Shown in pieces: positions 42,228-64,000 of a stretch of DNA of 64,000 nt; the stretch's first letter is position 1, and the number at the start of each line of letters is the position of its first letter. Origin of the DNA: an uncultured delta proteobacterium (GTDB lineage Bacteria > Desulfobacterota > Desulfomonilia > UBA1062); NCBI GenBank assembly GCA_963798485.1, contig CAWCTR010000020.1, positions 1-64,000 on the forward strand. Reading direction: 5' to 3'. Under the pieces are notes generated by a model that did no database searches, was not told the DNA's origin, and was given only the letters and a program-made list of their open reading frames with translations. A program made the position numbers and the translations under genes.

Positions 42228-42304
42228 TGGTCGGGACGAGAGGATTTGAACCTCCGACCCCCTGAACCCCATTCAGGTGCGCTACCGGACTGCGCTACGT
42301 CCCG
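42228..42304 (-). tRNA. tRNA-Pro(GGG)
   Basis: cgggacgtagcgcagtccggtagcgcacctgaatGGGgttcagggggtcggaggttcaaatcctctcgtcccgacca folds as a cloverleaf with encoded CCA. Confidence 0.96.
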
Positions 42305-58907: not shown

Positions 58908-59050
58908 AAGATACAAATAGAAGATAATAATGACCACTACAAAATGGAAAGCGATTATGAAGGCGCAATAAGCAGTTCGCTAACAACACCACCCATACCA
59001 TATCAATAAACAAGGTCCGCCTTATAATTCCTATATCTTTATTAATCTAA

Positions 59051-59073
59051 TGGTCGGGCAGTGGGGATTTGAA
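59051..59073 (-). mobile_element. att-like tRNA-Pro 3'-end fragment, copy 1 (left edge of accessory region)
   Basis: tggtcgggcagtggggatttgaa is the reverse complement of T-loop + 3' acceptor + CCA; followed by cgtgagaa/cgtgaaag direct repeats 11 bp apart (59116, 59127). Confidence 0.7.
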
Positions 59074-59238
59074 ACACGAAACCGTATTGTATCTAAGCCA
59101 CTCCACAGGCCGCTGCGTGAGAATCACGTGAAAGTTGAAAATTAGTTGGCTGAGAAAATTCTTGAATACCCCCTCCCCTGACAATAATATGCTGATACAA
59201 TAAATACGTTATTATTGAGATTGACTCTTTCTCCGATA

Positions 59239-59256
59239 TGATATACGTGTATAGCA
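59239..59256. promoter_or_regulatory. Probable TA autorepression operator
   Basis: Palindrome TGATATAC-GT-GTATAGCA overlapping a ttgaga-N16-tatgat promoter. Confidence 0.55.
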
Positions 59257-59271
59257 TAAGGGAGAGAACCT

Positions 59272-59496
59272 ATGCTTGCTATCCGACTTCCCGCAGAAAT
59301 TGAAGACCGACTTGAAGCCCTGGCAAAAGCCACCGGACGGACTAAGACCTATTATGCCAGAGAGGCAATTCTTGAGTATATTGACGACCTGGAAGATGTC
59401 TACCTTGCCGAGAAACGGCTGGAAGATATCCGAGCAGGCCGAACAAAGACCGTTCCGCTCGAAAAGATCATGAAACGCCATGGCATGGAAGGTTGA
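59272..59496 (+). CDS. RHH antitoxin (RelB/StbD/DUF6290-like)
   Basis: MLAIRLPAEIEDRLEALAKATGRTKTYYAREAILEYIDDLEDVYLA; overlaps the toxin gene. Confidence 0.9.
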   Translation: MLAIRLPAEIEDRLEALAKATGRTKTYYAREAILEYIDDLEDVYLAEKRLEDIRAGRTKTVPLEKIMKRHGMEG

Positions 59497-59752
59497 GCTT
59501 GACCCCGCAACAGTGCGGGATTTAGACCGCCTTGATAAGCAAGTTGCCCGACGCATCCTCAGTTTCTTATATGAAAGGGTTGCTCAACTGGACGATCCAC
59601 GCAGCATCGGCCAAGCGTTGCAGGGTTCCAAATTTGGAGAGTTCTGGAAGTATCGCGTGGGTGACTGGCGAATAATCTGTAAGATAGAAGATAAACGAAT
59701 AATTGTGTTAGTTCTCCGTATTAGACATAGAAGTAAGGTATACAGGCCCTAG
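59480..59752 (+). CDS. RelE/StbE family toxin
   Basis: DPRSIGQALQG..FWKYRVGDWRIIC...VLRIRHRSKVY. Confidence 0.92.
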   Translation: MAWKVELDPATVRDLDRLDKQVARRILSFLYERVAQLDDPRSIGQALQGSKFGEFWKYRVGDWRIICKIEDKRIIVLVLRIRHRSKVYRP

Positions 59753-59785
59753 AAAATCCAGGTCACCATGGAATCGATAGTAAAC

Positions 59786-59890
59786 TGGCCGGGAAGCGGG
59801 GATTTGAAGACTATTCCCTTGATTATAAACCGTCATCAGGCCTAATTCTACAGACTCGTACAGGATTTATGTCCGAGACTTGTCCGAGTC
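59786..59890 (-). mobile_element. att-like unit, copy 2: tRNA-Pro 3' fragment plus arm-type repeats
   Basis: tggccgggaagcggggatttgaa plus 82 bp; ungapped 87/105 match to 61331-61435 (counted by hand). Confidence 0.8.
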
Positions 59891-60078
59891 AAAATCATGA
59901 GATATTAAGTTCATTATTGAGAGTAAATTAATAATGATCCGTCATGACTCCTTATCGAATATCATGGTGACTTCATAAGTGCCGTAGCTTGATGTCATGC
60001 ATGTTGTTTATAGTTGTAGTGATTCGAATAAATTAGATTTATCTTGCATCCTTGCAATTTGGAAGGTAGTATTCCAAT

Positions 60079-61245
60079 ATGCAAGGTATTTACATTCCCA
60101 GATCTCTAGAAAACGATGTACGTCGTGGACTTGAGGAATTCCCGGCTGTGGCAGTCTTGGGTCCGAGGCAGTGTGGTAAGTCAACCCTGGCAAAGCATGT
60201 TATTGAGAGCTTCCCGCAGAGTATCTATCTCGATCTCGAACGTCCGTCCGATGGGCGCAAGCTTACCGATCCCGAACTGTTCTTTGATCACTATAAGGAC
60301 AGGCTCATCTGCCTGGATGAGATCCAACGTCTCCCAGAAATCTTCACCATATTAAGAAGCATGATCGATGAAAGAAGGAGGCCTGGTCAATTTCTCATTC
60401 TTGGATCAGCTTCTGGTGATCTGCTCCGGCAAAGCTCGGAGAGTCTCGCAGGTCGTATTGCCTACCTGGAATTGGCACCTTTCAGTATTAATGAAATATC
60501 TGATCGACCTGTGAGTACTCTCTGGTTACGCGGAGGGTTCCCCTCAGGCTTGCTTTCTAATGATGATCAGTCAAGCTTCCGCTGGCGACAGAATTTTGTT
60601 CGCACGTTTCTGGAACGTGACATATCCCAGCTTGGAATCCGGATATCTTCAGCCTCAATCGAGCGTCTCTGGCGCTTATGCGCACATTATCATAGTCAGC
60701 TGCTCAATCTCTCGGCCATTGGGAGTTCTCTGGGGATAACCCATCATACCGCCCGTTCCTATATCGATCTTCTCAGCAAGACCTTTATGCTCAGGGTACT
60801 TCCCCCGTTTGAGGCAAATGCAAAGAAAAGGCTTGTGAAGTCGCCGAAAATTTATATCCGGGACAGCGGACTGTTGCATACATTACTGGGAATTCGGGAA
60901 TATGAAGATCTGTTGGCACACCCTGTATTCGGGGGATCTTGGGAAGGTTTTGTTATTGAAAACATACTGACTTGTTTGCCTGACTGGAATCCGAGTTTTT
61001 ATCGTACCTCTGCTGGCGCGGAAATAGATCTTGTGCTTGAGAGAGGCAAACATAGGATTGCCATCGAATGTAAGGCATCATCTTCACCGTCAGTCACGAA
61101 GGGATTCTGGTATGCCCTCGATGATATTCAACCCGATGAAGTCTTGATTGTGGCTCCGGTCAAGAAAACGTACCCCATCAAAGAAGGAGTGATGGTTATT
61201 CCTTTGCAAGAGCTTGTGCAACACCTGATGAAAAAATCCCCATGA
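60079..61245 (+). CDS. AAA+ ATPase with DUF4143 / C-terminal nuclease-like domain
   Basis: GPRQCGKST Walker A; LDEIQ; ESLAGRI; GGFP; KSPKIYIRDSGLL; EIDLVLE...IECK. Confidence 0.9.
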   Translation: MQGIYIPRSLENDVRRGLEEFPAVAVLGPRQCGKSTLAKHVIESFPQSIYLDLERPSDGRKLTDPELFFDHYKDRLICLDEIQRLPEIFTILRSMIDERRRPGQFLILGSASGDLLRQSSESLAGRIAYLELAPFSINEISDRPVSTLWLRGGFPSGLLSNDDQSSFRWRQNFVRTFLERDISQLGIRISSASIERLWRLCAHYHSQLLNLSAIGSSLGITHHTARSYIDLLSKTFMLRVLPPFEANAKKRLVKSPKIYIRDSGLLHTLLGIREYEDLLAHPVFGGSWEGFVIENILTCLPDWNPSFYRTSAGAEIDLVLERGKHRIAIECKASSSPSVTKGFWYALDDIQPDEVLIVAPVKKTYPIKEGVMVIPLQELVQHLMKKSP

Positions 61246-61352
61246 AGGATTTAAGAAAATTATTTGAAATGTATCAGGCTCTTCTCATCGAGAATGGAGC
61301 CCTGAAGAAAGAAAATCAATTATTGAAAGATGGTCGGGAAGCGGGGATTTGA
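61242..61352 (+). pseudogene. 36-aa ORF that runs into att copy 3; likely a truncated gene start
   Basis: ATGA overlap with the ATPase stop; MKDLRKLFEMYQALLIENGALKKENQLLK, then att-derived DGREAGI*. Confidence 0.5.
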
Positions 61353-61435
61353 AGACGGTACCCTTCGCTGCAAACTTTCATCAGCCCTGCTTCTACAGAC
61401 TCGTACAGGGTTTCTGTCCGAGACTTGTACGAGTT
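61331..61435 (-). mobile_element. att-like unit, copy 3: tRNA-Pro 3' fragment plus arm-type repeats
   Basis: tggtcgggaagcggggatttgaa; ACTCGTACA...TGTCCGAGA..TGTACGAGT motif triplet. Confidence 0.8.
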
Positions 61436-61699
61436 CAATTGAATAGTTTATTATACCGGAGAGTCGACTTGAATCCCCACATCCACAAGGGACTTCGGAT
61501 TTTGGTTTCGTTAAAGCAAAATATCAAACCCCTTGATCTTAGGTCTTATTTTCCGTAATACCTTAAATTTAGGTCAATTTATGATTTCAATCTATTCCCT
61601 TACAGTCTATCAGTTCTCACATTTTTCCTTGGATTCTAGCACAATTTTAGCACAGTTATGGCGTATGTTAAGTAGCAGATATTATATCTAATCACCATA

Positions 61700-62339
61700 A
61701 ATCATAAGAAGACAGACAGGATATACCGGGAAGAAGGGTTATCGTTGAGGAGAAAGAAGAGGAAGAAGCTCCTAGGAATAAGGGTTGCCCCTGAATTAGC
61801 TACGAGAGTGAATGAGGTATGGTCCATGGATTTCGTGTCAGATGCACTTGCATGCGGCAGGAGATTCCGAGTGCTGACGGTTGTGGACGATTATTCCCGA
61901 TTGTCACCTGGACTTGAAGTAGCCTCATCGCTTCCTGGGCAGAGGGTAACAAGATTTCTTGACCACGTGAGCTTGAACCATGGATATCCAGAGCGTATCC
62001 GTGTGGATAATGGGCCGGAGTTTCTTTCCACGAATTTTACCGCCTGGGCTTTGAAGAAAAGGATACGGATTGAATATATCAGGCCGGGCAAGCCTTCAGA
62101 TAACTGCTACATTGAGAGCTTCAACGGTAAGTTCAGGGACGAATGTCTCAACGAGAACTGGTTTCTGAGTATCAAGGAGGCCAAAGAGATCATTGAAGGA
62201 TGGAGGGCCGAATATAACGAGATCCGCCCGCACAGTTCCCTAGGGAACTGTACTCCTTGAGTTTTACAGGGAACACCAGGCCGTGCTAAAAAGAAAAAAT
62301 ACTTGCCTTGGAAGTGGCCTAGTCAACGGGGTAAGGTCA
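61700..62339 (+). mobile_element. IS3-family (IS407/IS150-like) remnant: 5'-truncated OrfB transposase and right IR
   Basis: [48 protein letters not shown] and [11 protein letters not shown] motifs; frameshift after TP; ends ...ggggtaaggtCA. Confidence 0.88.
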
Positions 62340-62584: not shown

Positions 62585-64000
62585 TCAATGATTCAGGGAT
62601 TCACTCGATAGCGACAAGCTTTTCATCAGCTCATGGGCAATGTTTGGGCTTTCGAGCCGCATAATGCTTTCTTCAGCACTCCCAAAGCTCAAAAGATTGA
62701 TACTCCCATACCAGATGATTCTTTGGTCCAATGCAGAAAATTTCTGGTGGATATTGGATTTGAACACCAATTGGACACCGGCTTTTTTCAACAAATCCAG
62801 GACTTCCTCCAGAGCTGTTCTGTTCTTGTCCTTAAAATCGGAGGCCGGTCTTGTCACAACTACCACCTTAACGCCTTTCTCCAGCGCAGCACCTAAGTGT
62901 TGCAGCATCTGAAGAGCACGTCTCTTCGTAACAAATGGGCTTACGATCAGGACCTCTCTTGAAGCATTCATCAAATCATTACTGTATACGGGAAGAAAAT
63001 TGCTTTTATCGAAAATGATGTTCACGGATTCATCGCCAAGGCTTTCCGCCTTCGCGGAATAGCCTATGGACGCATATCCGGCAAGTCTTTTACCATACAT
63101 TTTTTCCAGCATCCTTACATGGATATCGACGTAGTCGTAAATCCGGACCTCCTTTTTGTCTTCAAACAAACGATGCAGCCTGCCTGCGTATTGCTGCAAT
63201 GTCCCTTTCCATGATATGGGCATGGCTAGAAATAAAGTGTCCAGGCGAGGCTCGTCAAAACCTTCGCCTATGTATTTGCCGGTTGCAACCAGAGTTAAAT
63301 GCTTATCAGCAGGCACATTGGTTATCCTAGCAAGCACCTCTCTCGTTTCTTTAACTCCGCGCCCGCCCGTTAGAGTCATCACGTCCGGTATCTTTTCACT
63401 CAACATCTTTGCCAGCAATTCGACATGGGCGGTTCTTTCAGTCAAAACGAGTGAATATCTTCTTTCAGAAAAGTTTTTAATCACATCATCGATAATGAAT
63501 TGGTTCCTGAATTCATCTTTGGTTATCTCGGTATATAGTTCCTGGATCGAAAGGCCCTTTTCATCCTGTTCAAACGGTATCCTGAAGCCGGTGAATCTGG
63601 GAATTATGTAATGTGCGAAAGGTCTTTTTTCCGCCTGAGATCTGGCGTCAACCCTGTACCTGACCGGCCCGCAATGCATAAAGATAATAGGATGGTGTCC
63701 ATCCTGCCTTGTAGGGGTAGCCGTCAATCCATACACATATTTCGCCTGAACGGCTTTAAGTATCTGCTCAAAGCTGAATGCCGGGACGTGATGGCATTCG
63801 TCCACGATCACCATACCATAATTCCTGACAAGATCTTTTACTTCACCGCTGTTGTTCAGGGACTGCATAATCGCAATATCGATGATGCCACTCGGATTAT
63901 CCTTTCCTGCTCCTATCTGGCCGATCAGGCTTTGCTTTTTCTTTCGTCCCCGTCTTTTCTCCAATACCGGGAGTTTCTCTTTAATGTTCAAGAACTCGGA
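62585..64000 (-). CDS. SF2 DEAD/DEAH helicase with C-terminal PLD-like domain (TOTE-type primase-helicase-like); runs off window end
   Basis: IVDECHH, GLTATP, GEGFDEPRLDTL and QYAGRLHR; C-terminal IVSPF...HQKF..LD...YGSINL. Frame is open to base 64000. Confidence 0.85.
   Translation of the reverse strand, partial: SEFLNIKEKLPVLEKRRGRKKKQSLIGQIGAGKDNPSGIIDIAIMQSLNNSGEVKDLVRNYGMVIVDECHHVPAFSFEQILKAVQAKYVYGLTATPTRQDGHHPIIFMHCGPVRYRVDARSQAEKRPFAHYIIPRFTGFRIPFEQDEKGLSIQELYTEITKDEFRNQFIIDDVIKNFSERRYSLVLTERTAHVELLAKMLSEKIPDVMTLTGGRGVKETREVLARITNVPADKHLTLVATGKYIGEGFDEPRLDTLFLAMPISWKGTLQQYAGRLHRLFEDKKEVRIYDYVDIHVRMLEKMYGKRLAGYASIGYSAKAESLGDESVNIIFDKSNFLPVYSNDLMNASREVLIVSPFVTKRRALQMLQHLGAALEKGVKVVVVTRPASDFKDKNRTALEEVLDLLKKAGVQLVFKSNIHQKFSALDQRIIWYGSINLLSFGSAEESIMRLESPNIAHELMKSLSLSSESLNH

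Follow-up and report, generated by a model that had tools for sequence, protein, structure and literature searches.

How does a series of small gene cassettes come to stand one behind another between fragments of a tRNA gene when none of them encodes a recombinase? The question is raised by the right end of the window, a stretch of 64,000 nt that makes up positions 1-64000 of contig C20 in the genome (G000) of an uncultured delta proteobacterium. An earlier note on this sequence had recognized three co-oriented pieces of a tRNA-Pro 3' end there, at 59051, 59786 and 61331, and had offered either eroded tandem islands or an integron-like array of mobile small cassettes as their origin. We examined the pieces, the tRNA gene from which they derive and the corresponding loci of related genomes. 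The anatomy of the locus indicates, with high confidence, tandem accretion at a tRNA attachment (att) site. We further propose that the accreting units were helper-dependent mini-elements resembling cis-mobilizable elements (CIMEs), an explanation that we consider probable as a whole.

The repeated core is the 23-nt TGGTCGGGAAGCGGGGATTTGAA, the reverse complement of a tRNA-Pro end from the T-loop to CCA, and it occurs three times on the plus strand of the window in a single orientation. The starts of copies 1 and 2 are 735 bp apart and those of copies 2 and 3 are 1545 bp apart. When up to three mismatches were allowed, the window contained four matches to the 23-mer, the fourth being its own tRNA-Pro(GGG) at 42228, while 100 dinucleotide shuffles of the window gave a mean of 0. 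The similarity to a tRNA ends after the T-loop in all three copies, at TTCAAAT in the tRNA sense. Past the core, copies 2 and 3 share an additional arm with 81% identity over 113 nt in a repeat search and 83.7% over 104 nt by blastn; this arm, here called type 3, is present in the genome behind these two copies only. The three tRNA-Pro ends, the point at which their similarity is lost and the extra stretch common to copies 2 and 3 had all been described in the earlier note, and each was confirmed.

The target gene was located with ARAGORN 4 kb past the end of the window. It is a tRNA-Pro(CGG) at 67975-68051 of contig C20 on the minus strand, its last 23 nt are those of copy 3, and the match between the two runs 2 nt beyond the tRNA end. 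The prediction that the target would be another Pro isoacceptor to the right of the window was therefore correct, down to the string in which the gene ends. The 23-nt end is found four times in the entire genome, in the three fragments and in the intact tRNA gene, the latter lying 6.6 kb to the right of copy 3. All four have the same orientation and the intact tRNA is at one end, which is the direct-repeat arrangement of a tRNA-targeting island. The number of mismatches to tRNA-Pro(CGG) declines from 2 to 1 to 0 toward the tRNA, a gradient that fits insertion at the tRNA-proximal site each time. This match also bore out the view that the fragments are att-type duplications with a crossover in the T-loop. 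As part of the same probable explanation, we regard them as attR-type junctions, each joining a displaced tRNA-Pro(CGG) 3' end to the P-arm of the element integrated at its right. In addition, a degenerate 15-nt piece of the core, including an exact 11-mer, was observed at C20 67916-67930 (9916-9930 of L001, the extracted locus), 44 nt ahead of the tRNA end, possibly as a relic of a further junction. A comparable core copy with 4 mismatches is found in relative G005, 96 bp from its tRNA.

An unoccupied form of the site is provided by relative G007, the closest one as judged by the identity of the flanks (87-92% at the amino acid level), which has a small open reading frame (ORF) and no tRNA fragment at this position. 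Copy 1 together with its left flank (C20 58949-59073) aligns to the end and 3' flank of the G007 tRNA gene with 70.5% identity over 139 nt, and this identifies copy 1 as the original end of the tRNA, now displaced. The order of an activase gene, tRNA-Pro(CGG), a gene for an IAT_beta protein and one for a 338-aa protein is kept across the genus (21 loci examined), and the distance from the tRNA to the activase gene is 84 bp in G012 and 157 bp in G003. By comparison with G007, the 8.9 kb from copy 1 to the present tRNA are inserted DNA that arrived later. The earlier note had expected that an extension to the right would reach both the intact tRNA and an integrase, and only the first expectation held: all 23 matches of the genome to PF00589 are on contigs other than C20. 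No recombinase was found by gene typing in the two intervals between the copies, as that note had stated of the RelBE and AAA-DUF4143 genes there, nor among all ORFs of at least 70 aa from copy 3 to the tRNA. In a search of the 9.4-kb locus against Rfam, with E values up to 1, the tRNA was alone in passing its family threshold.

An integrase is present at this site in relatives. In G002, a member of the same genus, a 16.2-kb element occupies the interval between a core and this tRNA and encodes a MobA/MobL relaxase-helicase, a T4CP coupling protein, a Fic protein and a tyrosine integrase of 414 aa, whose gene stops 15 bp short of the tRNA. An integrase 64% identical to it adjoins tRNA-Pro(CGG) in G028, and C-terminal integrase remnants of 37-100 aa lie beside a core in G005 and G019. 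Next to the G002 element is an 807-bp Phd/ParE toxin-antitoxin (TA) cassette, whose arm is homologous to the attR arm of the element and belongs to the same arm type. The two closest homologues of the G002 integrase in G000 are encoded elsewhere, one of 75% identity on contig C7 at a copy of a tRNA-Met(CAT) 3' end and one of 67% on contig C8, 2 kb from the transfer-messenger RNA (tmRNA) gene. The C7 protein (385865-387034) belongs to a tandem array of its own at tRNA-Met(CAT) (C7 376511-396231), in which the last 23 nt of the tRNA are repeated at 385819-385841 and 396209-396231; the distal arm of this array has the same repeat motif as the cassette arms described below. ARAGORN reported an 86-nt tRNA-Cys at C7 385756-385841, but its anticodon stem is poor and its end is formed by the tRNA-Met 3' repeat, which suggests a junction hybrid. 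On C8 (116246-180906), the tmRNA 3' end recurs twice about 64 kb downstream, at 180806 and 180884, 78 bp apart.

Short intervals that are bounded by the core and lack an integrase were likewise found in relatives. Among 52 genomes of the family, 43 contain the core at no more than 2 mismatches, 9 contain at least two matches and 8 have at least two on one contig. Five relatives (G010, G002, G011, G019 and G069; Table 1) carry such an interval, which substantiates the earlier suggestion that core and arm units bound small and variable cargo. All arms have the same layout of core, about 40 nt and two phased repeats of about 11 nt. The arm behind copy 1, type 1, follows the core in six cassettes with three kinds of cargo (RelB/RelE in four, PDC-M05 in one and PDC-S01 in one). 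Conversely, a PDC-S01 gene that is 81% identical between G019 and metagenome contig L124 stands behind arms with different repeat motifs. A search for the type-3 arm in 60 relatives and G000 gave matches beyond the core in G000 only. The combined pattern of core and type-1 arm was recovered at two loci among the GTDB representatives, both already known, and in two metagenome contigs of the same sequence (L124 and L125, counted once). The exact core was found in 51 stretches among all GTDB representatives, with no array besides those in the family, and had 0 matches in viral contigs. A 17-mer from the type-3 arm gave 8 matches among the GTDB representatives, all in unrelated phyla, and these were set aside as chance. 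A short AT-rich stretch (AATCAAT-like) immediately next to the core, on its cargo side, also appears to recur at element-derived junctions.

The behavior of the cassettes as units is best seen in two contexts of the same one. The G011 cassette and its counterpart on L124 are 92.4% identical (1172/1268) from the left core to the right core, and about 50% identical over 150 nt on each side outside the cores. Their neighbors differ: to the left, L124 has an MlaA-like gene whose best homologue in the family is 43% identical, and to the right it has another arm and a PDC-S01 gene in place of the tRNA. Similarly, the RelB/RelE cassette has identical ends in G010 and at locus L046, and L046 contains two diverged RelB/RelE cassettes in tandem with a perfect core between them. 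The cassette genes of G000 and G010 differ at a proportion of synonymous sites (pS) of 0.65-0.71, with a dN/dS of about 0.03-0.04 that is rough because dS reaches saturation in the cassette (1.5-2.2) as well as in the flanks (above 2.5). The distal cores of the same two loci have 2 mismatches in G000 and 0 in G010, and a hand calculation puts the probability that neutral decay across such a divergence spares the core, with at most 2/23 mismatches, at the order of 1e-8. Since near-perfect cores stand beside cassettes so divergent, the integrations must be much younger than the cassette lineages. These comparisons argue that the homologous mini-cassettes are discrete, core-bounded units and point to their mobility.

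We propose that successive site-specific integrations from the T-loop to the 3' end of tRNA-Pro(CGG) displaced older modules away from the tRNA. From oldest to youngest, these would be module A (RelB/RelE), module B (the PDC-S01 ATPase and a TOTE-type stump) and module C (an insertion sequence (IS) stump, TOTE and AbiE, bounded by tRNA-Leu pieces). All lack a recombinase and would be CIME-like mini-elements of a family of integrative mobilizable elements (IMEs), members of which place a tyrosine integrase next to this tRNA in relatives. The cassettes would most likely be moved by a co-resident helper, either by excision and integration of a composite through the outer cores (cis-mobilization) or through the helper integrase acting in trans; the helper would then leave or decay while the cassette remains. 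The anatomy of the junctions, the empty site, the integrase family in relatives, the sharing of arms and a cassette whose homology stops exactly at the cores in two contexts are observations; the helper, the catalyst of the movement, its action in cis or in trans, the direction of transfer and a role of the arm repeats as binding sites are inferred. With no cognate integrase at the locus, the array appears stranded at present, and modules B and C have also decayed in place.

Several observations weigh against this proposal. At least modules B and C are products of deletion, as B ends in a truncated gene and C contains an IS stump, and the evidence for discrete units comes from the cassettes of relatives, not from B or C. 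The type-3 arm of B and C occurs nowhere else in the 60 relatives or the GTDB representatives. Only 12-86 nt separate the cargo from the next core, so that a free mini-circle would lack the P' side, which the integrase gene provides with its 3' end in a full element. The integrase homologues of G000 are at other RNA genes, and none has a proven matching specificity. Plain decay does occur at this site, as the integrase remnants beside the cores of G005 and G019 show. Finally, no joint at any core, and hence no direct sign of excision, was found in contigs assembled from public runs. A single run contains at most a fraction of 0.33 of the words sampled from the 9.6-kb stretch, its uncovered parts carry no weight, and read starts, circles and rare variants are not visible in such contigs.

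Much of this would be explained if three full-size, integrase-bearing islands had integrated in turn and each had been trimmed in place, the small blocks never having been mobile and their TA and defense genes having been kept because they are selected or addictive. Such a history accounts for the TOTE stump joined to copy 3, the IS3 stump in module C, the integrase remnants in relatives and a contig without an integrase, and the saturated dS between the G000 and G010 cassettes is compatible with old vertical descent. It does not account for the same minimal cassette in an unrelated context with homology that breaks exactly at both cores, for the equal boundaries of the RelB/RelE cassette in G010 and L046, or for near-perfect cores beside cassettes with saturated synonymous sites; moreover, the closer relatives are empty (G007) or have another cassette (G011). 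We consider it unlikely that trimming alone made the array. The earlier choice between eroded islands and mobile small cassettes was not an exclusive one: decay is evident in the truncated gene of module B, and mobility is indicated for the homologous mini-cassettes elsewhere, but the two are compatible.

A second alternative is a dedicated platform at the tRNA that works in the manner of an integron, with free circles of 0.7-1.5 kb moved purely in trans and with core and arm as the sole requirement in cis. Integron cassettes are small, mostly single-gene units without a recombinase that are stacked at one site, and TA cargo is common among them. The reassortment of arms and cargo, with one arm type before three cargos and the PDC-S01 gene of G019 and L124 behind different motifs, would suit such a platform, as would the perfect core between the two diverged cassettes of L046. 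However, there is no platform integrase next to the array: contig C20 has no PF00589 match, and with it neither intI nor an intI/attI platform. The three 105-nt units fold no more stably than expected, with z scores of -2.3, -0.7 and -2.0, and have no hairpin in common across the unit, unlike attC sites. The recombination site here is a tRNA 3' end with an arm of the double-stranded type, the P' side is nearly absent, and the cassettes have promoter-like regions of their own rather than depending on a platform promoter. Since full elements with the same arm exist, deletion and hitch-hiking are simpler. The likeness to integrons that the earlier note had drawn is therefore one of behavior only, and we judge a dedicated platform very unlikely.

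That repeats led the assembly or the binning to fuse DNA of different organisms is hardly credible: although the genome is in 32 contigs with a contamination estimate of 6.96% and the coverage by any public run is partial, the cores of 23-25 nt are below the assembly k-mer length, both flanks keep their synteny with relatives, and copies 1 and 2 are bridged with 0-2 differences by X4 contigs, which come from an independent public run, so that the part from copy 1 to copy 2 is not an assembly artefact. Contig C20 has no N. Contigs of runs X1, X2 and X5 contain the TOTE-AbiE part at about 97-99% identity. Two joints in X1 (L001 4022>4117 and 5152>5780, with a side of less than 30 letters) are unexplained. 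X2 has a back-joint, L001 9964>9706, with 11 other letters between and a depth of 11.4, which may come from another organism.

Among described elements, the closest kind is the CIME in tandem accretion, a known route by which defense islands are built. CIMEs are att-flanked elements that have lost their genes for integration and transfer; they form tandem arrangements where a target gene has its 3' end, as with ICESt1/ICESt3 of Streptococcus thermophilus (PMC5704250). The modules fit the definition given there. A and B lie between two cores and C lies between copy 3 and the tRNA; Pfam, the PF00589 search and PADLOC revealed no integration or transfer genes in them; and a related mobilizable element with an integrase uses the same att site in G002, where its attR arm aligns with the cassette arms. 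The sharing of a target site between integrase-bearing elements and stripped tandem relatives is also a feature of the ICESt1/ICESt3 system (PMC5704250). In contrast to those CIMEs, the units here measure 0.7-1.5 kb with one TA or candidate defense system each, the same arm comes with different cargo, at least three are stacked without a helper at the locus, and their mobilization is one that we infer.

The Dehalococcoides ssrA islands offer a further parallel, as they are arranged in tandem, are delimited by many direct repeats that copy a small-RNA gene at its 3' end, insert at the T-loop and possess conserved sequence adjacent to the repeat; 15 of them lack an integration module and were proposed to be CIMEs (PMC3146451). 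They rely on a CcrB-like serine recombinase and the tmRNA gene, are larger and carry rdhA cargo (PMC3146451), whereas the present array involves the tyrosine recombinase family, tRNA-Pro(CGG) and defense or TA cargo. In the tycheposon islands of Prochlorococcus, neighbors are separated only by a partial tRNA, newcomers displace older elements, and degenerate fragments and additional partial tRNAs occur; an integrase and, in many cases, replication genes are encoded by the tycheposons themselves (bioRxiv 10.1101/2020.12.28.424599), while the units here have neither. The pdif (Xer) modules of Acinetobacter plasmids are, in the accounts available, small, TA-bearing, bounded by sites, without a recombinase of their own and shuffled between replicons. 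They are plasmid-borne and have XerC/D sites served by the host Xer proteins, whereas the cores here are tRNA-derived and chromosomal, the bounding repeat being a tRNA-Pro 3' end and not an XerC/XerD site as in pdif modules or IMEX. In the available main text of the literature, CIMEs and tandem accretion are described and mini defense cassettes at tRNA genes were not found. What is less ordinary in this array is the combination of unusually small, cleanly bounded one-system units with conserved arms and reassorted cargo.

The features of the locus and the short intervals of relatives are collected in Table 1. In module A, the two genes overlap by 17 nt, the gene architecture of a type II RelBE toxin-antitoxin pair, and the pair (59272-59752) is assigned to that class with putative activity. 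A promoter-like site at 59215-59242 lies within a block conserved across the homologous cassettes; in the scan for promoters and terminators, counts were no higher than in shuffled sequence. The arm of cassette A contains a tandem 11-nt repeat, GCGTGAGAATC/ACGTGAAAGT, at 59115-59135, and such repeats may be candidate arm-type protein binding sites. The type-3 arms have an inverted repeat of about 11 bp around GTAC motifs, at 59854-59889 and 61399-61434, which could be a site for a dimeric protein.

In module B, the ATPase is assigned to PDC-S01 from its profile match, itself a candidate defense gene only. The ATG of the TOTE-type stump overlaps the ATPase stop codon and its frame enters copy 3. 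Only 29 codons are left, with 72% identity to the N-terminal end of TOTE, and the remainder of this TOTE-type gene has therefore been lost by decay in place. A deletion by the integrase from a pseudo-site in TOTE to the core of the tRNA was considered as the origin of the stump and ruled out by reasoning, as the tRNA would then have had its own 3' end replaced. A TOTE gene with 78-83% identity to that of G000 lies in G013 (L034 1-1657), 150 bp from tRNA-Pro(CGG) and oriented like the stump; its tblastn match omits residues 424-629, and it may be internally deleted.

Module C encloses traces of a second att family. A pair of tRNA-Leu(CAA) fragments cut at the anticodon loop brackets the IS stump-TOTE-AbiE segment. 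The right-hand partner, at C20 67697-67752 (L001 9697-9752), is 89% identical to the left one over 56 nt, and an intact tRNA-Leu was not found nearby. The arm behind the left fragment has a tandem repeat, TAGCACAATTT/TAGCACAG, at 61637-61655, and its counterpart on C7 (627728-627884) also stands behind a tRNA 3' fragment cut at the anticodon loop. The fragments of this family are Leu-CAA-like on C20 and Arg-like, beside tRNA-Lys, on C7 (627680-627884), and behind both stands a homologous arm, about 190 nt long, that contains tandem repeats of the TAGCACA type. The IS3-type stump is missing its N-terminal part, and there is no second copy in the genome. The 158-aa ORF upstream of TOTE is a possible partner of the TOTE protein; it is followed, toward tRNA-Pro(CGG), by AbiEii and AbiEi. 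A literature search for TOTE returned nothing.

Table 1. Features of the array at tRNA-Pro(CGG) (window coordinates unless stated) and short core-bounded intervals of relatives.
Feature	Position or length	Strand	Basis or remark
Original chromosomal flank downstream of the tRNA (B' side), activase gene stop to copy 1	58908..59050	.	Alignment to G007
Copy 1, probable outermost attR core, displaced original tRNA-Pro(CGG) 3' end	59051..59073	-	2 mismatches
Cassette A arm, type 1	59074..59160	.	Same arm after core in 6 cassettes, 3 cargos
RelB-family ribbon-helix-helix (RHH) antitoxin, 74 aa	59272..59496	+	NCBIfam NF048017, 3.3e-33; Pfam RHH families
RelE/ParE-family toxin, 90 aa, overlapping antitoxin gene	59480..59752	+	Pfam PF05016, 1.5e-16; TIGR02385
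Copy 2, tRNA-Pro(CGG) 3' end	59786..59808	-	1 mismatch
Module B arm, type 3	59809..59889	.	81-84% identical to arm after copy 3
AAA_14-DUF4143 ATPase, 388 aa	60079..61245	+	Pfam; PADLOC PDC-S01 profile PDLC04790, 8.4e-96
TOTE-type gene stump, first 29 codons	61242..61328	+	21/29 residues identical to TOTE residues 1-29, E 8e-11
Copy 3, tRNA-Pro(CGG) 3' end	61331..61353	-	0 mismatches; identity with tRNA locus 25 nt
Module C arm, type 3	61354..61434	.	Repeat search, blastn; inverted repeat of about 11 bp near 61399-61434
Degenerate tRNA-Leu(CAA) 3' fragment, anticodon loop to near 3' end, left end of nested module	61456..61507	-	39/49 identical to the genome's tRNA-Leu(CAA)
Arm of second att family	61508..61700	.	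77% over 157 nt to C7 627728-627884
IS3-type transposase stump, rve catalytic core only, about 170 aa	61745..62260	+	Pfam rve, rve_3
TOTE gene, 3' part (951-aa AEP primase-helicase-PLD protein)	62585..64000, on to contig 65440	-	Pfam, PADLOC
158-aa ORF directly upstream of TOTE	C20 65445-65921 (L001 7445-7921)	-	No Pfam, NCBIfam or PADLOC match
G010 short interval without integrase	667 bp		Same RelB/RelE pair, directly against tRNA
G002 short interval without integrase	807 bp		Phd/ParE
G011 short interval without integrase	1310 bp		PDC-M05A/B, MNT/HEPN-like pair
G019 short interval without integrase	1479 bp		PDC-S01 ATPase, 29.5% identical to that of the window
G069 short interval without integrase	2496 bp		One BNR/neuraminidase-like protein

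Close homologues of the RelB/RelE pair were also noticed at other tRNA genes in other lineages. At L110 (3624-4362), tRNA-Ala(CGC) and a repeat of its last 24 nt (1 mismatch) enclose the pair in an interval of 664 bp, and the pair is oriented opposite to the tRNA. At L050 (Asn), L059 (Cys) and L117 (Leu), it is less than 200 bp from the tRNA, and no repeat was found at these three. Locus L043 (3378-3640), from a metagenome-assembled genome titled Desulfomonilia, has a RelB/RelE cassette with the type-1 arm and a badly decayed core. A tRNA-Pro(GGG) fragment cut at the anticodon loop lies about 185 nt to the left of this cassette, and an intact tRNA is absent from the 7.7-kb locus.

Mini-elements of this kind escape current tools: a large ICEfinder census listed zero CIMEs and noted only 31 in ICEberg (PMC10201445). 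How defense islands are assembled is debated, and here the joints can be read, each defense or TA system occupying a separate unit bounded by att sites at a tRNA hotspot. The att cores also supply exact cassette boundaries for annotating the PDC-S01, PDC-M05 and TOTE-type candidate systems. Homology of units that ends at the joints, together with an arm that comes with varied cargo, points to helper-dependent mini-elements left at a tRNA gene, a proposal that can be tested. It is possible, though doubtful, that a core, an arm of about 85 nt and one defense or TA system already form a complete mobile unit of 0.7-1.5 kb that the integrase of any resident helper of the family could move singly. 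If so, the phased 11-nt repeats and the AT-rich stretch beside the core would be the only requirements in cis, and the tRNA gene would serve as an integron-like rack of exchangeable defense genes across a bacterial family.

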